From a virus (Duplodnaviria; Heunggongvirae; Uroviricota; Caudoviricetes), in IMG/VR virus record IMGVR_UViG_2778261280_000009, positions 1-34,933 of that record: DNA of 34,933 bases; one strand, written 5' to 3'. A model generated the notes under the pieces. It saw only the letters and a list, made by a program, of their open reading frames with translations. It was not told the origin of the DNA and made no database searches. The translations under genes were made by a program, and so were the position numbers. Of this stretch, positions 5,297 through 34,933 are shown piece by piece. Numbering within the stretch: the stretch's first letter is position 1; each line of letters opens with the position of its first letter.

Positions 5297-5650
5297 TCAG
5301 CGACGACGGCTGGCGGCAGGTGGTTGCCCCCGGTTGAGCCAGAGATAACAACTCCCTCCGTCATCCGGAGAAACACGGTCCACCCAGAACATCTCGCCGT
5401 TAATGGTCAGCGTGTCACCACGCCGTACAGCACAAACCGTATCCGTAAGCACAAATAATGACGGGTTACTTCCTTCAATACGGATCCCACTACTGGCAAA
5501 ACCCAGCGACTCCGGATCGTCAAAAACGCCATGAACCTCGCCGCCACGCTGTGCACCGGAGGTGAACTGCGCACTGATGCCCATCACTTCAACAATCGTA
5601 CTGTCCACCCCGGCAAGGGCGGCATCAAAGGCATTCTGAAAATCACGCAT
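5297..5650 (-). CDS. FII: Head-tail joining protein gpFII
   Basis: Start trimmed to MRDFQNAFDAALAG (117 aa, the lambda FII size); C-terminus ...WVDRVSPDDGGSC.LWL resembles lambda FII. Confidence 0.75.
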   Translation of the reverse strand: MRDFQNAFDAALAGVDSTIVEVMGISAQFTSGAQRGGEVHGVFDDPESLGFASSGIRIEGSNPSLFVLTDTVCAVRRGDTLTINGEMFWVDRVSPDDGGSCYLWLNRGQPPAASRRR

Positions 5651-15006: not shown

Positions 15007-15342
15007 TTACTCCTTAGAGCCACCGAACTTGTTACCGATTACTCGCATTGCAGCCCCACGAATAGCATCGACCCCGATCAGCCCCACCCCACCACCAATG
15101 GCAACAGAAAGCGATTTAGGCCATCCGACATACTCAAGCGCGGATGCAAAGGTCAACGTCAGAGCGCCACATAGCAAAATCTCGAGCGTTTTTCGCTTCC
15201 AGCCACCACCACCACCAAAATAGGCGATGCGCAAACCAGCCATAACAATCGACATAATCACTGCGCCCAGCGGCGTATCTCCACGCCACCAGCTCTGGAA
15301 CAACTCCAGCCAGTCCGGCCAGGTATTTGGGTTATGAGGCAT
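15007..15342 (-). CDS. Holin (putative, three predicted TM segments)
   Basis: Start trimmed to MPHNPNTWPDW with a GAGGTG Shine-Dalgarno; 111 aa with three hydrophobic stretches; immediately upstream of the endolysin; not lambda S-like. Confidence 0.65.
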   Translation of the reverse strand: MPHNPNTWPDWLELFQSWWRGDTPLGAVIMSIVMAGLRIAYFGGGGGWKRKTLEILLCGALTLTFASALEYVGWPKSLSVAIGGGVGLIGVDAIRGAAMRVIGNKFGGSKE

Positions 15343-15390
15343 TTCGTCATCTCTCACCTCGCGATTATTTGCGGGTGCTGTGTTGGAAAT

Positions 15391-15412
15391 AAAAAGGCCA
15401 CCTGACGTGGCC
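15391..15412 (-). terminator. Rho-independent terminator right after the methyltransferase gene
   Basis: Minus strand GGTGGCCAC-GTCAG-GTGGCC followed by TTTTT, starting 7 nt after the methyltransferase stop. Confidence 0.6.
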
Positions 15413-15418
15413 ACCAGA

Positions 15419-16471
15419 TTATTTCCCCACCAGCTCGTTTATCTCTTTCACTGTCTGGTTAAACCGCTCTGACTCAAGCTCAACACCTAAGGCCCGACGC
15501 CCCAGCGCCGTTGCTGCTTTTATTGTGGAACCGGATCCCATAAAGAAATCAGCAACCAGATCGCCGGGTCGACTACTGGCATTGATTATTTGCCTGAGCA
15601 TATCCGCCGGTTTCTCACACGGATGTTTACCCGGGTAGAACTGAACGGGTTTATGCATCCAGACATCGGTATAAGGCACGGAGACTGATACGGAGAAATA
15701 GCGCCGGAGAGATTTAAACTCATCCAGCAATTCAGAATATTTGCGATTCAGTGAATCATAAGATGCCACCAACTGGTGGTGTGGTTGTTCCAGTTGTTGT
15801 TCCTGAAACTTCTCTGCCGCTATACGGGAAAACAGTGCCTGTAACTTCCGGTAGTCAGCCTCATTCGGCAACTGCCACTGACTGGCACCAAACCAGTGGG
15901 AAACCATATTTTTCTTACCTGTGGCTTCGGCAATTTGTTTTGCCGTTATACCCAGTTCGGCACGAGCATCCCTGAAATACGATATCAGCGGTGCCATTAT
16001 GTGCTGTTTGAGTTCCCTTTCTTTTGCCACATAGCCGTCACTTTTGCCGCGATATGGCCCCCGGTAATGTTCAGCAAACAGAACGCGCTCTGTGGCAGGA
16101 AAATATGCGCGCAGACTTTCTTTATTACACCCATTCCAACGTCCGGACGGCTTCGCCCAGATGATATGGTTAAGCACGTTGAAACGTTCACGCATCATGA
16201 TCTCAATATCAGATGCCAGGCGATGCCCACAGAACAGGTAAAGGCTTCCGGCAGGTTTCAACACCCGCCAGAACTGGGCCAGACAGTGGTCCAGCCACTT
16301 AAGGTAATCTTCGTCCCCTTTCCACTGATTGTCCCAACCGTTAGGTTTCACCTTGAAGTAAGGCGGATCGGTAACAATCAGGTCAATGGAATCATCAGGC
16401 AGGGACTGAATAAAATGCAGGCAATCAGCGTTGATTAAATCAACACTGTTTATTTTTACAGTATTTTTCAT
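15419..16471 (-). CDS. DNA methyltransferase (beta-class N6-adenine/N4-cytosine amino-MTase), orphan
   Basis: 350 aa; N-terminal DPPY catalytic motif (LIVTDPPYF) and C-terminal AdoMet motif (DFFMGSGST); no adjacent restriction endonuclease gene. Confidence 0.8.
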   Translation of the reverse strand: MKNTVKINSVDLINADCLHFIQSLPDDSIDLIVTDPPYFKVKPNGWDNQWKGDEDYLKWLDHCLAQFWRVLKPAGSLYLFCGHRLASDIEIMMRERFNVLNHIIWAKPSGRWNGCNKESLRAYFPATERVLFAEHYRGPYRGKSDGYVAKERELKQHIMAPLISYFRDARAELGITAKQIAEATGKKNMVSHWFGASQWQLPNEADYRKLQALFSRIAAEKFQEQQLEQPHHQLVASYDSLNRKYSELLDEFKSLRRYFSVSVSVPYTDVWMHKPVQFYPGKHPCEKPADMLRQIINASSRPGDLVADFFMGSGSTIKAATALGRRALGVELESERFNQTVKEINELVGK

Positions 16472-16620
16472 GGATCAGTAAGCGTAACTCTGGTAGGCTC
16501 ACTCTGCTTTTGCGCTAAAGCAGTGGGCCGTGGTTCGCTTGTGACCAGTAAGCATGAGCGAATGGCTGGCAGGTGCTACCAACACCCACCAGCCGCCCAT
16601 TTTCACAAATTAAAAGCCCT

Positions 16621-16815
16621 TCATTGCTGAAGGCGTCTGTAACAGCCGAACTGGTAATCTGCCAGCCCCGCCATAACCAGCTGGGTCAGTATTAACTGAC
16701 AGCGTTCGCGTGAAAGGTATGTGTTTTGTGCTATCTCCCCGACTGTTGCCGGTTTGCCGTTTAATTCATTAAAAACAACTTTCGCCGTTTCTGTCATATC
16801 TTGCTGTTTTAGCAT
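16621..16815 (-). CDS. Small hypothetical protein (64 aa), possible winged-helix fold
   Basis: ORF in the late-operon orientation with a hairpin overlapping its stop codon; function unknown. Confidence 0.35.
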   Translation of the reverse strand: MLKQQDMTETAKVVFNELNGKPATVGEIAQNTYLSRERCQLILTQLVMAGLADYQFGCYRRLQQ

Positions 16816-16938
16816 GTCTTTTTACCTTCATGGTTAACATGACATACCAATAACTCTTGTCTAAAAAGCCAGCAAGATAAAAAGTCAGTATTCACGACCA
16901 CCAGCGTGTTTACCGTACTGCACCAATGTTTAATTTAT

Positions 16939-16960
16939 AAAAAAACCGCGAGAACGCGGT
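16939..16960 (-). terminator. Rho-independent terminator downstream of the AT-rich moron ORF
   Basis: Minus strand ACCGCG-TTCT-CGCGGT followed by TTTTTT. Confidence 0.6.
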
Positions 16961-16996
16961 AAGTATTGTTAAAAAAAAACAGTAATTTCACTCAAC

Positions 16997-17527
16997 TTAT
17001 TTAATACATTCTTTTGCTTGCGCATAATAAATTTTATGAGTATTAGCAAGCTTAACGAAGTTATACTTAACTGCCCCTAACAGGGTTCCAACTCTTGTAT
17101 GCCCTTCCATTAAATGAAGCCCTGTTGTATTACTTTTCAGCAAAGCTCGATCTATAAAAAATGGAGGTTCACACCATGTGCCAAAATTACACCAATGCGC
17201 TTTTATTTCATCATCCATAAATACATCGCCTTTACGGGTTGTGAAATCTTCAACGACCTCATGCAAAAAATCAGGGTAAGTAGCATTATCCCCGATAGTT
17301 AAAAAATTTTTAGTGGGAAGTTCAATCAATTTCCATTCGATTTGGTCAATATTAAGATCCCCATAAAGCTCCTGAAATCTGTCATAACCTGCCAATCCAT
17401 AATAAATCTCCTGAATTACAGGAGTGGGGGCGGCGATAGAATATTGCTCACGAAGTATTCTTTCAGCCTCAGGAGCTTTAAATATGGGTCTTTCTGAGAA
17501 AATAGGCAAAAGATCTCGGTATAACAT
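16997..17527 (-). CDS. Hypothetical protein (176 aa) in an AT-rich moron between Q and the lysis genes
   Basis: Uninterrupted ORF with a GGGGA Shine-Dalgarno; local GC is visibly lower than the flanking phage DNA; flanked by terminators; no family recognised. Confidence 0.6.
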   Translation of the reverse strand: MLYRDLLPIFSERPIFKAPEAERILREQYSIAAPTPVIQEIYYGLAGYDRFQELYGDLNIDQIEWKLIELPTKNFLTIGDNATYPDFLHEVVEDFTTRKGDVFMDDEIKAHWCNFGTWCEPPFFIDRALLKSNTTGLHLMEGHTRVGTLLGAVKYNFVKLANTHKIYYAQAKECIK

Positions 17528-17540
17528 CCATATCCCCGTG

Positions 17541-17576
17541 TAAGAAAAAATAATTTAACCCGCTCGGCGGCGGGTT
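17541..17576 (-). terminator. tR'-like intrinsic terminator downstream of Q
   Basis: Minus strand AACCCGC-CGCCGA-GCGGGTT followed by AAATTATTTTTTC, about 100 nt downstream of the Q stop. Confidence 0.5.
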
Positions 17577-17621
17577 CTTGGACTCATCAACGGTAGACAT
17601 ACAAAGCCCATCGTTGGGAAA

Positions 17622-17650
17622 ATCTTATCCATATTTTTTGAGAAATGCAA
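17622..17650 (-). promoter_or_regulatory. Candidate late promoter PR' (-35 TTGCAT, 17-bp spacer, -10 TAAGAT)
   Basis: Sigma-70-like hexamers on the minus strand between the Q stop and the tR'-like hairpin; the position matches lambda PR'/qut/tR'. Confidence 0.35.
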
Positions 17651-17681
17651 GCATCATGTCGCCATCTTCGGTGAAAATCAC

Positions 17682-18434
17682 TTATCTCGTCACCTTTCTC
17701 AATTGTGCTTCAGCGAATGCTTCTTCCTGCCAGCACTTTGTTACCAGTTTATCAATGACGTCTGCATATCCTTTGTACCACTGATAATCAGTCAGGTCTG
17801 GTACCAGCTTCTGGACATGACGTCGTGCCAGTGTGGTCGGTAAACGACTAAACCGGTTTCCATTGCAACGCCCACAAATCTTATAAACAGGCGCGCCATG
17901 AAGCCGGGTTCTTTTTTCATCCAGGACAATGCCTTTACCCTTACACCCTCTGCAAGCCGTGCTGACTTCTCCCTTACCATGGCAATGCTGACATAATTCC
18001 TTCACCCACTCTTCCTTGATAACAGATTCCCCGCTTCTGGAGTGTTTCACCACTTCGCGCAATACACTATGAAATCCAGTACCAGCACAATGCTCACAGC
18101 GAGCCTTACTTGCCGCAGACCTGGAATAATCAGCAAAGGCAAAACTCACAAGGTAAGGGATGATCTGTAACCGGGTTTCTTCACTCAATTTGTTCAATGT
18201 CGGGTTATCCATTGCCATCGCGTAATTGAGCAGACCTTCAATCGCAAACTGAGGATCCTGAACACCAACTTTTGCCAGGAATAAGGCAAACCCAAGCGGT
18301 GCTTTCGACTGCACCATCCCCTGCGCAGCCATCACATCCGTAATCGTTAAACCACCTGAGCCTGTCGCCGGTGCGTCATCGCTCAATTTTGGAGATTTTG
18401 GGGAGTAATATTTTGGTAAGGCTTCAAGGTTCAT
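17682..18434 (-). CDS. Late-gene antiterminator Q (Qin-prophage QuuQ/YdfT-like)
   Basis: 250 aa with several CxxC zinc-binding motifs (CEHCAGTG, CQHCHGKG, CRGCKGKG, CGRCNG); sits immediately upstream of the late promoter/lysis region. Confidence 0.65.
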   Translation of the reverse strand: MNLEALPKYYSPKSPKLSDDAPATGSGGLTITDVMAAQGMVQSKAPLGFALFLAKVGVQDPQFAIEGLLNYAMAMDNPTLNKLSEETRLQIIPYLVSFAFADYSRSAASKARCEHCAGTGFHSVLREVVKHSRSGESVIKEEWVKELCQHCHGKGEVSTACRGCKGKGIVLDEKRTRLHGAPVYKICGRCNGNRFSRLPTTLARRHVQKLVPDLTDYQWYKGYADVIDKLVTKCWQEEAFAEAQLRKVTR

Positions 18435-18447
18435 GCTCGTTCTCCAC

Positions 18448-19443
18448 TTACGCCAGTACGCCTATTGCCAGCGCATGATCGATAAAACGAAATATCAGCT
18501 CCAGCTGGGAGCCATACATCTCTTCAAATGCCACGGTATCCGCATGCAGCTCGTCGTGATGCTTTCTGCACAAAGGCAACACAAAAAGGTCATGCGCTTT
18601 TGTTCCCATTCCACCCTGACCGTGGCCTATCAGGTGGTGGGGATCATCAGCGGGCTTTCCACAACATGCACACGGCTGTGTCTTAACCCAGCGCGTGTAC
18701 TTTTCATTAACCCAGCGGCGACGTTTTGGGCGTAACATAAAAGACTCCGGCGACTCCGGATCCACTTTCAGCGCCAGCACCTTTTTCGCTTTATCCTGGA
18801 TGATGCTGGTGGCAGGAACCGAAGGCACAAGGTCACTTTCCCGGGTGACAGACGGCACAACAGGCTTCGGTAATCTCAGTGCCTTACGGGCTGCACTTTC
18901 CGGTAAGGCATCCGCCAGGTCATTACGAACCAGCCACCAGCACAGTTCCGGCATTGTCACAACGTGACTATCATCAAAACCGAGATCCCGACGCACGACA
19001 GACAACACCCAGCGGGCACAGTTATCCGTTGCCATTGATTCCAGCCGTTCCGTGAATTGATCGCGCAGCTGGTTATCGCAGTGCCAGCACAGACGGATTG
19101 CGCCCGGAGCATGTCGCATTGTGGTCATGTTCTCGCTGTGCCAGTCGGAATGAGGCCACTGACAGCCTTTTTCACGAAGTAACCAGCTTTCAAGACATTC
19201 CACACCACCAGCACGACGGATCACTGCCTCATTACGGAACACGGCCCGAACGGCAGGATCATCCGCCAGTGGTTGTGATGCCGCCGGAACGGCACCACTG
19301 GCAAAAGATGAATAACGTTCCGGCTCAGGCTCCAGCAGGACACGCCCCTGCATAAACAGGGGCATCAGCTCTGAACCAGGCCTGAACAATACGATCCCCA
19401 TACGCGGGGCAATTTCAGGGGTCAGTAGTGCTCTCACGATCAC
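18448..19443 (-). CDS. DUF968-family protein (YdfU-like) with C-terminal HNH-like Cys/His motif
   Basis: 331 aa; C-terminus CACCGKPADDPHHLIGHG...CRKHHDELH; resembles proteins found just upstream of Q in Qin-type prophages. Confidence 0.55.
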   Translation of the reverse strand: MIVRALLTPEIAPRMGIVLFRPGSELMPLFMQGRVLLEPEPERYSSFASGAVPAASQPLADDPAVRAVFRNEAVIRRAGGVECLESWLLREKGCQWPHSDWHSENMTTMRHAPGAIRLCWHCDNQLRDQFTERLESMATDNCARWVLSVVRRDLGFDDSHVVTMPELCWWLVRNDLADALPESAARKALRLPKPVVPSVTRESDLVPSVPATSIIQDKAKKVLALKVDPESPESFMLRPKRRRWVNEKYTRWVKTQPCACCGKPADDPHHLIGHGQGGMGTKAHDLFVLPLCRKHHDELHADTVAFEEMYGSQLELIFRFIDHALAIGVLA

Positions 19444-20663: not shown

Positions 20664-20986
20664 ACTTTCAGCTCCCTCTCATGTAACCAGTGGGCTGCAC
20701 GCAGCCTGGCGTTTTCCTCACCGGCAAGCAGTGCGCGGATAATCCCGACCGCCTCGCTGTCGTCGTCCTTCACCGCGGTATGAAGCGTTATCCCCCGGGC
20801 CACGCCACGCTTTATCGTGATGACGCCTTTTTTCTCCAGTGCGCGAAGATGCTCCACCGCTGCATTCACTGAACGGTATCCCAGCATGGTTGCCACCTCC
20901 TGATTGGTTGGCGGGAAGCCACGTTCTTGCTGGTAAGAAATCAGCATATCCAGCACCTGCTGCTGGCATTGAGTTAACGTCGTCAT
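20660..20986 (-). CDS. LexA-like DNA-binding domain protein without peptidase domain
   Basis: Start trimmed to MTTLTQCQQQVLDMLISYQQERGFPPTNQEVATMLGYRSVNAAVEHLRALEKKGVI, which aligns with the LexA N-terminal wHTH; AGGGAG Shine-Dalgarno; 109 aa with no S24 Ser/Lys domain. Confidence 0.65.
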   Translation of the reverse strand: MTTLTQCQQQVLDMLISYQQERGFPPTNQEVATMLGYRSVNAAVEHLRALEKKGVITIKRGVARGITLHTAVKDDDSEAVGIIRALLAGEENARLRAAHWLHERELKV

Positions 20987-21636
20987 GCCGCCATCTCCCT
21001 GACCAGTTTTTCCGCCTGCTGGCGAACCTGCGCCAGAAACGCCTCGCCACATGCCTCAAGTTCATCGCGCCCGATGTAGCTGATTGCCGGTCCCTTCCAG
21101 GTCTTGTCGAAAACAGCAATAGCACCAGCGAAGAAAGCGCCTGTCGGCACCTGCTTCTCATCCTTCGGGATAAACCAGGCAGGAAGTTCAAAACCAATAC
21201 GCCCGCGAATAAAAGCAATATGGTCTGCGTCTTCCGGCCACCACACTTCGCTGGTGGCAGCTTTGATCAGGAAAACATAGCGCCCGCCTTTATCACGCAT
21301 GGCACTGGCATGCTTCATGATGTAACGCATGCCGGTGATGTATTGCCCCTCATGCTGACTGGCGCGGCTGTATGGGGGATTACCAAAGGCAGCACCTTTA
21401 AGCTCCGCAAGACGTTCTGACCAGTCATGCGCCAGCGCGTTGTCTTCCGCCGTGTAATACGCGGCACATTTGGCGTTATCACCGTCAGTGAACAGATCCA
21501 GAACAAACGGGCCAAACAGGGTGTTAATTCCCCAGAAAATGTTATCCGGCGTGCGCCACTGATCGCCCACTTCCTTCAGTTCATGGGCTGGTTTGTTCCG
21601 CAGCTCCACCAGCGCCTGGCAATATTTATTACTCAT
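20983..21636 (-). CDS. Phage Dam-like N6-adenine DNA methyltransferase
   Basis: Start trimmed to MSNKYCQ (TAATG overlap with the upstream gene); catalytic FGNPPYS motif; 217 aa. Confidence 0.75.
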   Translation of the reverse strand: MSNKYCQALVELRNKPAHELKEVGDQWRTPDNIFWGINTLFGPFVLDLFTDGDNAKCAAYYTAEDNALAHDWSERLAELKGAAFGNPPYSRASQHEGQYITGMRYIMKHASAMRDKGGRYVFLIKAATSEVWWPEDADHIAFIRGRIGFELPAWFIPKDEKQVPTGAFFAGAIAVFDKTWKGPAISYIGRDELEACGEAFLAQVRQQAEKLVREMAA

Positions 21637-22130
21637 TAAGCCCCCACGTAATTCCCTGACAGATACCACTCTTCACCTGATGCAGCGCGCTTGCTGCTTT
21701 TCCGTAAGCACCGCTCACGACGCGCCAGAAAATTGTTTCGTTCTGGCTGGGAGTGGCTTTCACGGAATGCCGCCATCCACACCGTTGCAGCACGACGGTA
21801 TAAGCCCCTGGACTCCAGTTCTTCCGCCTGGCGGGTCAGGCACAAAATCACCCGGGGATCGTTAGTGCCGACATAGAAATTGCGCACAGGTCTGGTTTCA
21901 CGAACTGGTTGTGGTTCCGGCTCCTGCGCTCTCTCAGTCAGGCGTGGGAAATGTCTGCGTGTATCTCCTTCACAACGGTGAGCCACACGCCCACTCTGAC
22001 GTAACTTGCTTGCTGACTGCAGAAAGCGCTGCCGTGAGTAACCTGCAAAAGCATCCGCAATGTCTCCGGAAGTACAGCCCGGATGGGCTTCAATGAATTT
22101 CTGAACTTCATTCAAAAGACTCATGATCAC
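21636..22130 (-). CDS. Hypothetical phage protein (164 aa), possibly a transcriptional regulator
   Basis: ORF overlapping both neighbours in operon fashion; Arg-rich C-terminal half; family uncertain (size recalls YfdN of CPS-53). Confidence 0.4.
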   Translation of the reverse strand: MIMSLLNEVQKFIEAHPGCTSGDIADAFAGYSRQRFLQSASKLRQSGRVAHRCEGDTRRHFPRLTERAQEPEPQPVRETRPVRNFYVGTNDPRVILCLTRQAEELESRGLYRRAATVWMAAFRESHSQPERNNFLARRERCLRKSSKRAASGEEWYLSGNYVGA

Positions 22131-29701: not shown

Positions 29702-32700
29702 TCACACGCTGCGCCTTCGAGAATATTCATTTAATCGCTGATAACGAACATCTTGCTCCAGTTGTGGAGCAGCTTGAACAATTTGAAGCAAGCATTGCCC
29801 CAACTCTCGAGGCCCCCAGTGTTGGTCGGCAATCACGGCATTCAGCAGGGATAGAGCGTCCGCAGGATATCGGCTGCAAATATCTGATTTTAGCAAAAGG
29901 CGAACGTCGTAGCTAAGGTGTTCGAGCGGTTGCAGCCAGTCCTGCACCACTGCCAAAGCCGCCGGAAATTCACCTCGGGCAGCAATCACCATACGAGTCA
30001 ACGATTCGGATATGCGTGGGGTGGCCAAGTTGCGGGACTTTGGCCAAACCTGTTGCCAAAATGGCTGGACACGATTTTTCCAATACTCCTCGCGCTGATC
30101 GCCCGCACCTTCAAGTGCCTGGTATAACGCCTGCGCGGCTACCTCCAGACCTTCTTGTGGAAGAGCACTAATTGCCGTTCGGAACTCCTCCACGGTATAT
30201 CCCTCGGTAGGGCCCAGAGCTGCATAAGTCAGGAAAGTAGCGAATTGCTGCCGGTGCTCGCCAAGATCAGAATAGTGATTGGCGCTCTCCAAAAAATCTG
30301 ACTTGAAAGCTATCAGCAACGGTTCATACAGGCGTGGCGACCAGAGGAAGCCTTCCCACACAGCTTTTGCTTCGACGGGATTACTCCAAGCAAACAAGGG
30401 CAATAGATACTGTTCGGTCCAAGGTCGATCTACGCGAAAAAATGCGATCAGCCGCGACCCCAGCAACACCCGACCATGGCGGAATAGCTCTATCTGTACA
30501 TTACACAATTTGGTGAAAAGTGTTTTCAATTCAACAGGAAGCAAATCATTGTCATTCGGGTTCTGTTTGAACCATAGGGTGATCAGTGATTGCGTGACAT
30601 GCCCAATGGGATGATTGATCGCCGTAGAAACAGGATCATAGGTCTCAATTCCGTTTCGAATGGTGCTAGACTCTGGGCTTGTTTCTATCATCAGAACCCG
30701 ACGACAAAGGGCCAGTAGAATCTCCTCGTGGCAGAGGATGGACTTCGAAGCCTCCTCCATCCACCAAGTGACAGCGTGGGAAATCTCCTGAAGTACTGCG
30801 TCAGGCATGTCAAGCACCAACGGTGCGGCGTACCGCCACGAACGCAAAATCATCCCTGGTTCAGCCCAAGTCTGCAGAGCTTCACGCCACCGACCAACAG
30901 GCCACACATCATCTTGTGATAGTTTACGTAACGCATACAGACTGTGAAAAAAGCGCGTACGGCAAACATCACTCCAAGTGTCCTCATAGAAAGGCAGTCT
31001 TTCTGGCATAGGCTTTGCGAGCCATTGCACTAATTCCTGCCACTTACGGGGCGCAATGTCGACATCTATACTCTCCTCGAAGCCTGGATCACCGGTTCCG
31101 CTCATCCAGTGAGAGAATTCATCACGCTCGTTGGTTGCCAGTTGCCATTTTGGGTATGCTGTGGATATTTCCGTCAAACGTGTAGCCGCAGACTCTCCCA
31201 AAACAAGGCCCGCTCCCCTGAGCTTCGCTAGACACAACCAGACAGAATGAGCCACCAAATAATGCCACCTGTCTGCTTCCAAATTATCCTCGTACATCTC
31301 GCGCGGAGGCCCTGCCAAGATAGCAGTTTCCAGACGCTCTTGTGCAATTCCTGTCAGATGTCGTCCCTGCAAAACAAATAGTCTGAATACCTCTCGCCCA
31401 GTATCCGTGGCCCACAACCACCATGAACCGTCCTCTAACAACCAATTAACCCACCGCTCAGGTGGTATGCAGTTGTCTTGGCTTGCGGCAAACAGTGCCA
31501 GACGTTTGAAGGTGGGATATGGCAACTCAAACCAATTCTGAGCAATGCGCGTGGCCTGATCGCTGTCTTTGGCTCGAACGGCTAACCATGAATCCCGAAG
31601 TAATTCAATCAGGCTCACCCAATCGCGGAACCCCCGGTTCTGCCAGTGCGGAGTGATGGACGGCAAATCCCAATGCGAGCGGTCGTGACGATCGTCGGAC
31701 TCTCCCAACTCCCGCAACAAGTCCAGTGCATCACGCAACAACTGCTGAAAATCTTCCAACAGGTATGGCAAGGACGATTTCCATGACTCGTCAGCAAGGT
31801 CGAACAGGGTTGAACGTACGTAATCAGCAGTCAGCACCAGCTCCCAATCCACCAATTGCTTGATTCGCAAGGGCTCATCAGTGCTGCTCGAATCGTCTTC
31901 ACTATAGCGAAACGGCCGCCTCAACATAACCTTGGGAGAAAGCAACTCGCGTAACTCCAAGCGCAATGTAGTCGTCAAGCCTTCATTCTTTAAGCGGTTT
32001 TGCCAACGATACAAATCCAGGTTCTGCAATGGCGATTTCACACGACCACTAAGCAGAAGCCGCCATAAAGTAGACATAGGTGGACCAGGAATAGCCAGGG
32101 GGGAATGCAAGAGAATTTCATCTAACTCAGAAGTCTTACGCTCCCGCATCAGTGCTGCTAAGCGATCTAGTTCGCTCTCAATCAGAAACATCCAACGGTC
32201 GTGTATTTGTCCGCCGCGTTCAGCAATCCATATGATCAACCTAGGGTCGCCCAGATAACGAACTAGCCAACGGGCTATATGGGACATTACGTCATCCCAT
32301 TTGCTAGCACTGACACATCCAGAAACCAGCGACATCTGCGGGGCTAGCTCATAGGACGCAGGACGCTGAACCAGGCTGAATCGGAGTTTCGGGTCAATTT
32401 CGACATGCGGAGATACACAAAAGCGTGGCAGATCGCTGTATTTAAATCGTTCGTCCGAGAAAGCTTTCAATAACCAATCCAGCGGCGGTGCAGGATTGAG
32501 TTCCGCAAAACATTTTGCTGGTAAACCTGACTTATCAGATAAGGCCCACATCATCCGACCAACGAAATCGTCCTGCCGAGTACTATCCTGCGGGCGGGCC
32601 AGAGCATGTTTGACGACAATGGCTTCTTTGCCTTGTATACCATCGCGATAAATATTTGCCCAAGCGCACAATGTATGGTGCATCGCTGAATGATCATTGG

Positions 32701-33529
32701 AGTCCGCCGGTACGGTGTAAAGGATGGGGGTGACCCCCTTGGCCTCCCACTCGATAGATTTCCGGTGCTCCTGCCCCGGCTCACATTCTCCTAGTGCCCA
32801 TACTTGCGGCGTGACTTCACCGAGCCTCCGATCTGCTGCCAGTGCGTCCATCATATAGCGTAGCACCGGGTCGTTGATGCTGTAGCCCACGAAGCAGACT
32901 ACGTAGTTACGGAACAAGTCACTTACAAAACGGGCTGCCCAGCGTTCCGTGAGATAGGCTAAGCCAAAGTCTCCACTAGTGACAACCAGACGATTCAGAG
33001 CAGTATCGTCTGTCTTTTCCGGTAACAACCCATGCAGGTAGACTATTCCGTCCCAGCGACTATTTTTCGGAATTGGCAGCATCGGCGCTACATAAGCCTG
33101 AAACGCTTGGGCCGTGCGTTTAGCTGCCACATGAAATAAGCGGTCAAAGTTGGTAGTAACTAACCGAAGGGCACCATCGCGACTACGCGCCAAACGCAAC
33201 AGCGCCATCTGAGTATCAGTTGCGCCTCTATAGTGAAGTTTTGGCTTAAGGGCTTGTTCCAGCGCGCGACGGACGGCTATACGCTGTCCCGGTAGGCGCC
33301 GTTCCAACAAATCCAATGTGGCGTCGAACTGACCGCGCTTGAAGGCCTCACACTCAATTTCTGAAAGTGTTGTTCCGTTCAACTGGTAAATCCGCTTTAC
33401 CAATCCCTTGAAACCTGGCAAACCAGCAGGGTAGGAAATGCCTGCCCCGCAGAAGAACACCACGCGGCCTTCCTCGTGCGCCTGCAAAAGTTCATCCGGA
33501 ATATCAGGGCCGTTGGTGATAAATTGCAT
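29702..33529 (-). CDS. Large SIR2-like domain protein (1275 aa), candidate defence-associated sirtuin-type NADase
   Basis: AGGAGG Shine-Dalgarno 8 nt upstream of the ATG; N-terminal VVFFCGAGISYPAGLP, TTNFD (N127) and YLHG (H166) fit the SIR2-like fold; about 1000 aa of Trp/Leu-rich helical sequence with no Walker A motif. Confidence 0.7.
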   Translation of the reverse strand: MQFITNGPDIPDELLQAHEEGRVVFFCGAGISYPAGLPGFKGLVKRIYQLNGTTLSEIECEAFKRGQFDATLDLLERRLPGQRIAVRRALEQALKPKLHYRGATDTQMALLRLARSRDGALRLVTTNFDRLFHVAAKRTAQAFQAYVAPMLPIPKNSRWDGIVYLHGLLPEKTDDTALNRLVVTSGDFGLAYLTERWAARFVSDLFRNYVVCFVGYSINDPVLRYMMDALAADRRLGEVTPQVWALGECEPGQEHRKSIEWEAKGVTPILYTVPADSNDHSAMHHTLCAWANIYRDGIQGKEAIVVKHALARPQDSTRQDDFVGRMMWALSDKSGLPAKCFAELNPAPPLDWLLKAFSDERFKYSDLPRFCVSPHVEIDPKLRFSLVQRPASYELAPQMSLVSGCVSASKWDDVMSHIARWLVRYLGDPRLIIWIAERGGQIHDRWMFLIESELDRLAALMRERKTSELDEILLHSPLAIPGPPMSTLWRLLLSGRVKSPLQNLDLYRWQNRLKNEGLTTTLRLELRELLSPKVMLRRPFRYSEDDSSSTDEPLRIKQLVDWELVLTADYVRSTLFDLADESWKSSLPYLLEDFQQLLRDALDLLRELGESDDRHDRSHWDLPSITPHWQNRGFRDWVSLIELLRDSWLAVRAKDSDQATRIAQNWFELPYPTFKRLALFAASQDNCIPPERWVNWLLEDGSWWLWATDTGREVFRLFVLQGRHLTGIAQERLETAILAGPPREMYEDNLEADRWHYLVAHSVWLCLAKLRGAGLVLGESAATRLTEISTAYPKWQLATNERDEFSHWMSGTGDPGFEESIDVDIAPRKWQELVQWLAKPMPERLPFYEDTWSDVCRTRFFHSLYALRKLSQDDVWPVGRWREALQTWAEPGMILRSWRYAAPLVLDMPDAVLQEISHAVTWWMEEASKSILCHEEILLALCRRVLMIETSPESSTIRNGIETYDPVSTAINHPIGHVTQSLITLWFKQNPNDNDLLPVELKTLFTKLCNVQIELFRHGRVLLGSRLIAFFRVDRPWTEQYLLPLFAWSNPVEAKAVWEGFLWSPRLYEPLLIAFKSDFLESANHYSDLGEHRQQFATFLTYAALGPTEGYTVEEFRTAISALPQEGLEVAAQALYQALEGAGDQREEYWKNRVQPFWQQVWPKSRNLATPRISESLTRMVIAARGEFPAALAVVQDWLQPLEHLSYDVRLLLKSDICSRYPADALSLLNAVIADQHWGPRELGQCLLQIVQAAPQLEQDVRYQRLNEYSRRRSV

Positions 33530-33715: not shown

Positions 33716-34933
33716 TCAGTTAGAGTCTGAGCAAGTAATTATCGATTCAATCCTCTCCCACCATGCCAAGTAAGCTTTACGCTGTTCTTCTAGATAATCG
33801 CTCTTATCATAAACTTGCCATACCCCTGGCAGCTTATGACCAAGCATGATTTCTGCGATATGAGGCGCAGTAAGATCAGAAAAATTTGTTCGTGCTGTCC
33901 GTCTCAAGTCATGAAGAGACCAATGAGGGAATTGATACCCAAAACGCCGCCATGCGTATTGCATTAAATTGTAAGGTAGCGACTGCAAGGATGTCCGACC
34001 AACTGGTTCCCTGCTTCCTTCCTTAGTAAAAAGCATATCGGAACCATTGTTCATAGAGATAGTGTACTTTATAAGCTCTTCAACCTGTTCAATAATGGGC
34101 CGCTTTAGCGGTTCGCCTGTTATCTCCCCAGTCTTATGTCGTTCTGGTGGTACAGTCCATACCTTATTAATGAAATCAAAATCGTCTACCCTAGCGGTAA
34201 TTAGCTCTGAACTACGGCAGCCAAAATGCAGCAATAGTTTAATGAAGGCCCGGTATTTAGGAACCATTCGAGAACCATCGATCGCAGCATAAAGGATTTT
34301 AATTTCATCATGTGTCAGAAACCGTTTCTTCTGACCTTTACGGATATCCATATCTTTACCCGTGATATCCGACAGCGGGCGAGTTTCAATGAGCTTTCTC
34401 TTATACGCCCATACATGGGCCTGCTTTGCGTTAATTAGCAATCGGTCTGCTATTGCTGGAGTCTTAGTGCAAAGAGGTTCCAGGACTTCTAACCAATCAT
34501 GCAATGTAGCTGCATCGTGAGGGATATTCCCGATTTTAGAGAACAGGTGCAGCTCAAACGAGCGGAGTATCTGTTCAGAACCTTTTTTATTTTTTACACA
34601 ATATGCTTCATACCAGGCACGGATCACAGACTCTACCGTCATGGCTTCAGTAGCTTTTCGTTTTTCAGCCTGCTTGACCAATCGTGGATTGCGGTTTGAC
34701 TCGAGTTCACCACGGAGACGGATAACTTCTTCTCTGGCCTCTTTTAATCCAGTTGCCGGGTAAGTTCCGATATCAAGACGCTCACCTTTCCCCGCCCACT
34801 GATAACGATATTGGAACACTACGCGACCTTTCGGTGATACTCTGACAGACAGACCATCACGATCGGATTTAACCAAAACCTTATCACGTTCCTTTCCAAC
34901 GACTGAACGCAACCACGCATCAGACAGCGCCAT
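33716..34933 (-). CDS. int: Tyrosine site-specific integrase (P4 / CP4-57 type)
   Basis: 405 aa; N-terminal arm-binding-like domain (MALSDAWLRS...), catalytic HDLRRT box and C-terminal Tyr (WQVYDK); ATG is the last three bases of the window. Confidence 0.85.
   Translation of the reverse strand: MALSDAWLRSVVGKERDKVLVKSDRDGLSVRVSPKGRVVFQYRYQWAGKGERLDIGTYPATGLKEAREEVIRLRGELESNRNPRLVKQAEKRKATEAMTVESVIRAWYEAYCVKNKKGSEQILRSFELHLFSKIGNIPHDAATLHDWLEVLEPLCTKTPAIADRLLINAKQAHVWAYKRKLIETRPLSDITGKDMDIRKGQKKRFLTHDEIKILYAAIDGSRMVPKYRAFIKLLLHFGCRSSELITARVDDFDFINKVWTVPPERHKTGEITGEPLKRPIIEQVEELIKYTISMNNGSDMLFTKEGSREPVGRTSLQSLPYNLMQYAWRRFGYQFPHWSLHDLRRTARTNFSDLTAPHIAEIMLGHKLPGVWQVYDKSDYLEEQRKAYLAWWERIESIITCSDSN

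Follow-up and report, generated by a model that had tools for sequence, protein, structure and literature searches.

A single-gene cargo cassette inside the tR' terminator of a lambdoid prophage encodes a protein with a predicted ParB/sulfiredoxin-type fold

In lambdoid phages the late promoter PR' is constitutive in lysogens and is normally stopped at the terminator tR', and short PR'-tR' RNAs have been described for lambda (6S RNA), 21, phi80, 82, P22 and the Stx phages (PMC7547250). A separate body of work concerns the ParB-CTPase fold, which is defined by its Box I and Box II (GxxR) layout and in which the GxxR arginine is needed for nucleoside triphosphate (NTP) binding (PMC12704722, PMC4619093), with Box III reported to be often absent from orphan ParB-like proteins (PMC12704722). 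The GxxR motif also matches hhDGQQR of GmrS and FGGCHR of sulfiredoxin (PMC4619093). Here we consider ORF176, an open reading frame (ORF) for a 176-aa protein in a Caudoviricetes genome (IMG/VR record IMGVR_UViG_2778261280_000009, positions 1 to 34,933; this whole stretch of 34,933 nucleotides is the window). ORF176 is a cargo gene that lies in tR', and its product is predicted to have a ParB/sulfiredoxin (ParB/Srx) fold.

The closest parallels to the locus are stx and other Q-dependent lambdoid cargo, together with the HK97/HK022-type morons, which are likewise terminator-bounded accessory genes of atypical composition, present in some phages and absent from others, between Q/PR'/tR' and the lysis genes. 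ORF176 differs from these in having no promoter of its own, in being inserted within tR' itself and in its degraded upstream terminator; because of that degradation, its Q dependence may be relaxed compared with stx-type cargo. Lambda 6S RNA and StxS arise from the same transcription unit, constitutive PR' transcription being stopped at the first terminator (PMC7547250). The ORF176 unit would instead be an mRNA and not a short non-coding RNA, the predicted first effective terminator lying after the 531-nt coding sequence.

The cassette and its slot

ORF176 is an accessory, compositionally foreign, mobile single-gene cargo cassette inserted inside tR', since close relatives of the prophage have the slot empty (SfV, 720R4) or occupied by other cargo (Ayreon, mEp460 and Stx2c phages). 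In SfV and vB_EcoM-720R4 the two flanks are contiguous (~187 bp) and enclose one terminator, AACCCGCC..GAGCGGG followed by a T-tract, which is annotated as rho-independent in SfV. Ayreon, mEp460 and the Stx2c phages carry another insert, of 865 bp, between two copies of the tR' terminator, and the two hairpin and T-tract copies that flank the Ayreon cargo are near-identical. The window keeps the tR' hairpin on the left, has cassette DNA directly after it and ends the cassette with a different terminator, and homology to the other phages resumes at 16931. The features of the cassette and its upstream border, all on the minus strand, are as follows.

17622..17650, minus strand: candidate late promoter PR' (-35 TTGCAT at 17645-17650, 17-nt spacer, -10 TAAGAT at 17622-17627)
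17588..17616, minus strand: conserved 5' leader hairpin of the PR' transcript, CAACGATGGGCTTTGTATGTCTACCGTTG
17544..17576, minus strand: tR' remnant, consisting of the hairpin AACCCGCCGCCGAGCGGGTT (17557-17576), the same as in the single tR' of SfV and 720R4, then the interrupted T-tract AAATTATTTTTTC (17544-17556)
16932..17556, minus strand: cassette-specific DNA, 625 bp, guanine-plus-cytosine content (GC) 0.358, with junctions taken from alignment of the window with SfV, Ayreon and 720R4
17533..17537, minus strand: Shine-Dalgarno sequence GGGGA, 5 nt before the ATG, with an anti-Shine-Dalgarno duplex of -5.7 kcal/mol
16997..17527, minus strand: ORF176, ATG start, 176 aa
16939..16960, minus strand: the cassette's own intrinsic terminator, ACCGCGTTCTCGCGGT + T7, with its hairpin at 16945-16960 and a d-score of +26.6

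Of 5,426 complete E. coli genomes, 90 carry an 801-bp stretch spanning the cassette in essentially intact form, and the two flanks occur without it in ~1,270 further E. coli genomes as well as in many lambdoid phages. A spread sample of 60 E. coli records held the ORF176 cassette in 4 cases, the 865-bp cargo in 6 and an empty slot in 8, with one flank only in the remaining 42. The Ayreon cargo (L002 3074-3791) consists of a 141-aa, lipoprotein-like ORF starting MKKVLIAAIGFCLVGCAG and a 37-aa ORF, an arrangement that is repeated in mEp460 and the Stx2c phages, and Pfam gave no family for either ORF. Nearly the same tR' hairpin (CCCGC..GAGCGGG with a T-tract) follows PR' in the distant homologue loci L025, L026, L028 and L030, despite unrelated Q Pfam families (PF03589 versus PF06323), and it may act as a short shared recombination joint for cargo exchange.

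An ORF check of the window returned the coordinates, strand and length that an initial annotation, made from the letters alone, had given for ORF176, and the Shine-Dalgarno sequence it proposed was also found, with a duplex energy close to that of Q (-6.4 kcal/mol). Its claim of lower GC than the surrounding DNA holds as well, at 36 % for the cassette against 52 % for the window. ORF176 has a GC of 0.369 and a third-position GC (GC3) of 0.282, compared with 0.47-0.56 and 0.45-0.64 for nine neighbouring phage genes; only 0.58 % of equal-sized windows across the 34.9 kb are as AT-rich, and every one of the ten most AT-rich overlaps the ORF176 locus. Codon usage is less clear-cut: GC and GC3 set ORF176 apart, but a synonymous-codon likelihood test did not separate it from the neighbouring genes.

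The position between Q and the lysis genes, on the late-operon strand, is likewise as first described, ORF176 lying between Q/PR'/tR' and lysis. The element had been called a moron, which is a promoter-gene-terminator unit (Juhala/Hendrix); its presence or absence among collinear phages, its atypical composition and its own terminator fit that term, but it does not have the promoter.

ORF176 is a real gene under constraint. This follows from its 22 clusters at 90 % identity in Enterobacterales, from 286 relatives in a profile search of 1.84 billion representatives (50 % identity), mostly stand-alone proteins of 165-185 aa, from 337 clusters in a profile search of a 5.8-billion-protein set (Endozoicomonas, Psychromonas, Colwellia, Halarcobacter and many metagenomes), from dN/dS values of 0.26-0.37 between its alleles and from the confidence of its AlphaFold2 (AF2) model. 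The probability of 176 stop-free codons at the composition of the cassette is ~2e-6. Searches with tblastn also found relatives on plasmids of Streptomyces, Rhodococcus, Bacillus, Vibrio and Hymenobacter, and a close-alignment search of one-genome-per-species contigs gave no related loci.

A relative of ORF176 is carried by 27 viral contigs and by one of 50,697 cultured-phage records. Where identity is 94-100 % the arrangement is always Q, the ORF, orf64 and methylase. Copies at ~50 % identity come from prophages of Salmonella, Klebsiella and Citrobacter type whose modules differ, and in these loci as well the first ORF to follow Q is the homologue; in L025 that Q belongs to PF06323, as against PF03589 in the window. 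Seven distant loci (L018, L020, L023, L025, L026, L028 and L030) have a TTGCAA-17-(C/T)ATATT promoter and a tR'-type hairpin upstream, with the start codon ~25 nt after the hairpin, an arrangement from which L029 and L031 depart. The cargo 3' of the homologue varies between distant loci, and neither L018 nor L030 has a methylase. From these comparisons, first late-operon ORF after Q appears to be the family-wide position in phages. In two of the Salmonella-type prophages other genes stand on the opposite strand between homologue and holin: a PipA/GtgA-family zinc-protease effector (PF07108, E 3e-130) with a lipoprotein-like ORF in L018 (6899-8395, minus strand), and a HicA/HicB pair in L030 (5606-6378, minus strand).

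The minus-strand order in the window is a DUF968/HNH gene, Q, PR', the leader hairpin, the 17576-17557 hairpin, ORF176, the 16960-16945 terminator, orf64, the methylase, the 15412-15396 terminator, holin S, lysozyme and Rz; the rest is an SfV/HK97-like prophage with an integrase at the right end. The neighbours that matter below are these.

17682..18434, minus strand: Q antiterminator gene, 250 aa (PF03589 Antiterm, E 1.7e-53; phrog_127)
16621..16815, minus strand: orf64, a small winged-helix-like protein and backbone gene 3' of the slot (phrog_331, E 5.8e-35; weak TrmB/MarR_2 matches)
15419..16471, minus strand: N6/N4 DNA methyltransferase, a backbone gene (PF01555, E 3.3e-42; PADLOC MTase_II, E 1e-151)
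15396..15412, minus strand: third terminator hairpin, between the methylase and holin S (S start 15342); an equivalent is annotated in SfV and Ayreon

The gene orf64 is also found in phages with an empty slot. Together with the PF01555 methylase it forms a second terminator-bounded unit before the lysis genes (between 16945-16960 and 15396-15412), and it exists as two alleles, 52 % identical, one in the window and SfV and the other in Ayreon and 720R4. Mechanical gene calling gives a 135-aa, GTG-start holin ORF (15007-15414, minus strand) that runs through the terminator hairpin; the true S start is likely the ATG at 15342, giving the 111 aa annotated in SfV.

Transcription from PR' and the fate of tR'

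The assignment of PR' rests on its position and conservation, a generic promoter scan having given no flag there. Its hexamers are invariant in the window, SfV, Ayreon and 720R4, and the spacer varies at one base. The scan for sigma-70-like promoters, across 15300..18500, returned no minus-strand site, and the 29 nt from the end of the hairpin (17557) to the ATG (17527) leave no space for a promoter. On these two grounds the sequence implies that ORF176 has no promoter of its own and must be transcribed from PR'. Two sigma-70-like matches lie antisense to ORF176 on the plus strand (17001-17028 and 17415-17442) and are probably spurious, of a kind common in AT-rich acquired DNA. The leader hairpin of the PR' transcript is recovered in minimum-free-energy folds and has few substitutions across loci; it could belong to a Q-utilisation or pause element or to an StxS-like small RNA, and an Rfam scan of 16500-17900 gave nothing real, including no family for this hairpin.

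The initial annotation had placed two intrinsic terminators around the gene. Both hairpins are where it put them, and in a terminator scan of 15300..18500 (14 sites against 3.4 expected) they were the top two, both on the minus strand (17576-17557 and 16960-16945). Scored by the d'Aubenton-Carafa d-score, the downstream one passes as a terminator and the upstream one fails.

Window, upstream of ORF176: d-score -25.6
Window, downstream of ORF176: d-score +26.6
SfV tR': d-score +23.1
Ayreon, two copies: d-scores +21.4 and +14.8
Distant homologue loci with an intact tR' (L025, L026, L028 and L030): d-scores +17.8 to +23.2

The interrupted T-tract TTAAATTATTTTTTC follows the upstream hairpin in 13 of 13 close copies. 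Copies of the 94 % allele lineage (L013-L015) also carry mutations in the 5' arm of this hairpin, whereas the downstream terminator does not vary among the five close copies shown. Read in this way, the upstream 'terminator' appears to be the tR' of the phage itself, which the insertion split and which is weakened in this lineage. In the E. coli copies, insertion of the cassette would have put other DNA in place of the tR' T-tract, leaving a hairpin that seems to be decaying, and the first effective terminator after PR' would now be the cassette's own, 3' of ORF176, so that the functional tR' would in effect have moved. ORF176 would then be expressed not just upon induction but already in the lysogen, and transcription into orf64, the methylase and the lysis genes would still require Q. 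Given that PR' is constitutive and that the upstream tR' lacks its T-tract, we put transcription of ORF176 from PR' in lysogens, with the functional tR' shifted to its 3' side, at an even chance.

Two considerations pull the other way. The d-score is a heuristic, and an A/T-rich tail such as the one upstream of ORF176 may still partly terminate. In addition, four of the six distant homologue loci that were scored keep an intact tR' upstream, and for this reason Q-dependent late expression is probably the ancestral state.

The ORF176 family, its fold and a predicted nucleotide site

The initial annotation recognised no family for ORF176, and by sequence this stands, whereas the predicted structure places the protein in the ParB/sulfiredoxin fold. 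ORF176 matches PHROG 8867, a group of unknown function, and that group alone (E 1e-96); Pfam, NCBIfam and PADLOC scans gave no match, its annotation is hypothetical only, and we found no literature on phrog_8867 or WP_000966854. Scans of 117 diverse relatives, member by member, against Pfam, PHROG and PADLOC returned only noise (CUE, DUF1281; E at least 1e-3), together with a single match to phrog_1033 (ParB-like) at only E 0.036. The product is a 20-kDa protein with a pI of 5.4 and no detected signal peptide or transmembrane segment, and is predicted to be cytoplasmic. A secreted toxin, among the cargo options first raised, was rejected because both of these features are lacking.

Structure prediction, proposed at the outset as a check, gave a confident AF2 model (predicted local distance difference test score, pLDDT, 94.6; predicted template modelling score, pTM, 0.89) whose alpha/beta core can be superposed on solved proteins that have the ParB/Srx fold. 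The structural scores were highest for PadC (6.0), pNOB8 ParB-N (5.8) and two sulfiredoxins (5.4 and 5.2), followed by SbnI (4.4), BrxU (DUF262) and free serine kinase (both 4.2), KorB (4.0), Osa (3.9) and SspE (3.4). Foldseek against the BFVD viral models was weak (best E 4.8e-3) and was dominated by ParB/Srx, GmrSD-N and DndB-like proteins. The regions of the protein are listed below.

Residues 1-60: helical N-domain
Residues W112, T117, W118 and P122: Box I-like element
Residues E141-G142-H143-T144-R145: Box II P-motif
Residue H164: conserved

The most conserved columns of the family fall into two clusters, which are the Box I-like and Box II elements, and across the 117 members G142 and R145 are each 98 % conserved. 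The GxxR P-motif sits at the junction of strand 137-141 and helix 143-155. The Box I-like element comprises helix 106-115, a loop G-T-W-x-E-P-P and strand 123-126, in register with HG-ILQP-LIV of Spo0J. When aligned by hhalign with a small ParB profile, PPFFI...LHLMEGHTR falls opposite QPLIV...YDIVAGERR (E 0.027), and Spo0J alone gives the same register (E 0.25); both reference sequences were identical to PDB entries. We therefore place ORF176, with moderate confidence, on a divergent branch of the ParB/Srx fold that had not been classified before and that carries an additional helical N-domain. Less firmly than the fold, we hold it probable that the protein binds an NTP; it would also probably hydrolyse that NTP or transfer from it, and would act alone.

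This assignment has to be weighed against several results. None of the 117 members matches PF02195 at E values up to 1, and PDB sequence searches with both profiles gave nothing relevant. A Box III equivalent was not identified in ORF176, and hhalign against the single sequence of human sulfiredoxin produced an irrelevant alignment. Moreover, of 28 ParB-fold proteins that were purified in a survey, 17 gave no NTP binding in vitro (PMC12704722). Since membership of PF02195 was tested and not found, we do not file ORF176 as a ParBc family member.

Comparison with the described members of the fold shows what ORF176 shares with them and what it lacks. With the ParB-CTPase/PF02195 proteins (PadC, 6RYK; pNOB8 ParB-N, 5K5D; Spo0J; KorB) it has in common the strand-to-helix GxxR, before which comes a Box I-like helix-loop-strand that aligns in the Box I/II register, and these proteins too are often orphans on mobile elements (PMC12704722). 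It differs in reading E-G-H-T-R instead of G-E-R-R, in its unique helical N-domain and in three near-invariant tryptophans, and in contrast to a canonical partition ParB it has only 176 aa, no LG(K/R)GL ParA-binding motif and no Pfam match to a helix-turn-helix or any additional domain. Among the scanned neighbour genes of ORF176 no parA-type family turned up, the structural-gene half of the window being outside that scan. Sulfiredoxins (1YZS, 6KY4) are eukaryotic or cyanobacterial and repair peroxiredoxin; their catalytic Cys, in F(G/S)GCHR, becomes His143 in ORF176 and Arg or Gln in relatives, and there is no significant profile match. Solved examples of the DUF262/GmrS N-domain type (GmrSD, BrxU, SspE and DndB, with DGQQR/DGQHR) have 500-600 aa, whereas ORF176 has no effector domain. 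GmrSD joins its DUF262 domain to an HNH-type nuclease domain (PMC4619093), and ORF176 has no DUF262 or DndB Pfam match. Osa (4OVB) is a plasmid-borne fertility-inhibition protein that acts on conjugation, with a low structural score and no sequence similarity to ORF176.

Genomic contexts, role and implications

Beyond phages, homologues occur in a wide range of settings. Their neighbours include GNATs, toxin-antitoxin pairs, integrases and insertion sequence elements; at another locus a KAP NTPase, DUF4365 and a relaxase; and elsewhere an integrase, RadC, ArdC, an AAA_15/21 ATPase and a type I restriction-modification system. One homologue is in a phage with Abi_C. The homologue on pVPTW011 of Vibrio parahaemolyticus is a single-gene integron cassette with attC-type repeats at L047:4846-4965 and 5496-5586. 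Homologue GC was below that of the flanks in 13 of 13 loci tested. A conserved partner gene was rejected because none was found across ~20 contexts, and an obligate partnership with the methylase was rejected because backbones lacking the cassette occur and a methylase is missing from most homologue loci. Three further placements were seen. In two Arcobacter-type genomes (L034 7001-7513 and L043 6001-6513) the homologue lies directly 3' of guaA with different genes downstream, and this site may be an insertion hotspot. Many Streptomyces homologues (plasmid hits H115-H134) lie ~5-30 kb from the ends of 100-600 kb plasmids, of which the one inspected is linear, and the S. albidoflavus homologue overlaps the end of a convergent HNH endonuclease gene.

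Members of the family are carried singly, as cargo of phage late operons, integron arrays, plasmids and defence islands, and these contexts point to an autonomous accessory function in mobile element-host conflict, of an exclusion or defence type, which is the least certain step of our argument. Counter-defence, or an enzyme with some other role, would fit these contexts as well as defence or exclusion does, and it counts against a conflict function that none of the 117 members matches a PADLOC defence model, there being only stray single matches at E of at least 0.012. Taken as a whole, our best explanation is a promoter-less cargo gene in tR', transcribed from PR', expressed in lysogens and encoding an NTP-binding ParB/Srx-fold protein with a conflict role; we hold this combination at about even odds.

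The strongest competitor is that ORF176 is a strictly late, Q-dependent lytic factor aiding phage development, with the upstream hairpin still terminating in the lysogen. As such it could be an NTP-regulated nuclease or NTPase acting on host or competitor DNA, as Osa does, or could help the adjacent methylase to mark progeny DNA. We consider this possible but tentative. In all phage loci examined, the first ORF to follow Q/PR' is ORF176 or its homologue, and four of the six scored distant loci retain an intact tR' (d-scores of +18 to +23). Phage ParB-CTPase folds are often fused to PF01555 methylases (PMC12704722); a PF01555 methylase lies ~0.5 kb downstream in the window and in L031, methylase genes adjoin homologues in L045 and L046, and Osa provides an example of a stand-alone ParB/Srx ATPase/DNase on a mobile element (PMC4619093). 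However, more than 1,000 genomes have the methylase backbone without the cassette, and most distant loci carry a PipA-family effector, a lipoprotein or HicAB in place of the methylase. The decay of the upstream terminator is also tolerated in two allele lineages, and many homologues are found outside phages altogether.

An enzyme of small-molecule or protein phosphotransfer, comparable to sulfiredoxin, free serine kinase or SbnI and giving the host a metabolic or stress benefit, seems improbable. The conserved E141, H143, T144, R145 and H164 are residues of catalytic type, the protein is mildly acidic (pI 5.4) with no Pfam helix-turn-helix or other DNA-binding domain detected, and many metabolic cassettes also reside in integron arrays. 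Nevertheless, the catalytic Cys of sulfiredoxin is absent, His or Arg taking its place in the ParB register; no conserved metabolic neighbour appeared in ~20 contexts; and the carriers are mainly phages, plasmids and defence-type islands.

Still less probable is a toxin or an effector of abortive infection, harmful to the cell once it is expressed. The slot does correspond to the stx position in Stx phages, and some homologues adjoin toxin-antitoxin pairs or Abi_C genes, but ORF176 lacks a signal peptide and a transmembrane segment, has no PADLOC match and is solitary in its integron and phage cassettes, with no adjacent antitoxin-like partner. Loss of the upstream terminator has been tolerated in lysogens in which PR' is constitutive, and this argues against a toxic product. 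Finally, AT-rich DNA, a hypothetical annotation and the want of a Pfam family might suggest a spurious ORF or decaying remnant, an idea that is effectively refuted by the ~2e-6 chance of an ORF like this, by hundreds of homologues that are full-length and share conserved motifs, by a dN/dS of ~0.3 and by a pLDDT of 94.6.

Other features of the prophage may be recorded here. A gene directly next to the integrase (33716-34933, minus strand), at 29702-33529 on the minus strand, encodes a protein of 1,275 aa whose N-terminus is a SIR2_2 domain (PF13289, E 1.5e-22); it looks like sirtuin-type cargo of the kind associated with defence, placed at the int-proximal end. A second DNA methyltransferase (PF05869, Dam; 20983-21669, minus strand) in the nin region gives the prophage two methylases, and no tRNAs were found in the window.

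Compared with the initial annotation, the analysis adds the anatomy of the cassette in tR', the family-wide position, the ParB/Srx fold with its predicted NTP site, the integron relative and the idea of tR' decay. A bolder proposal, which we think doubtful at present, is that the family represents a new single-protein, nucleotide-dependent module of exclusion, defence or counter-defence on a minimal ParB/Srx fold, expressed in the lysogen through a gene inserted in the constitutive PR'-tR' '6S RNA' unit with its decaying terminator, a route that has not been described. If this were true, the by-product transcript of antitermination control would become a lysogenic-conversion mRNA. If the prediction of fold and nucleotide site holds, several hundred 'hypothetical' proteins of Proteobacteria, Campylobacterota, Actinomycetota and Bacillota would join the orphan ParB-CTPase-fold switches on mobile elements, and a recent survey seeded with PF02195 would have missed the ORF176 family. 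In ~1,350 E. coli genomes the slot within the terminator occurs in three allelic states, and it offers a clean natural system for cargo swapping at terminator hairpins, and likewise for the question of whether tR' decay makes late genes lysogen-expressed. The family moves as lone cargo in the lambdoid tR' slot and in integron attC arrays, two cassette systems that are unrelated to each other, and is therefore an easy single-gene target for screens of phage defence, anti-defence and plasmid exclusion.

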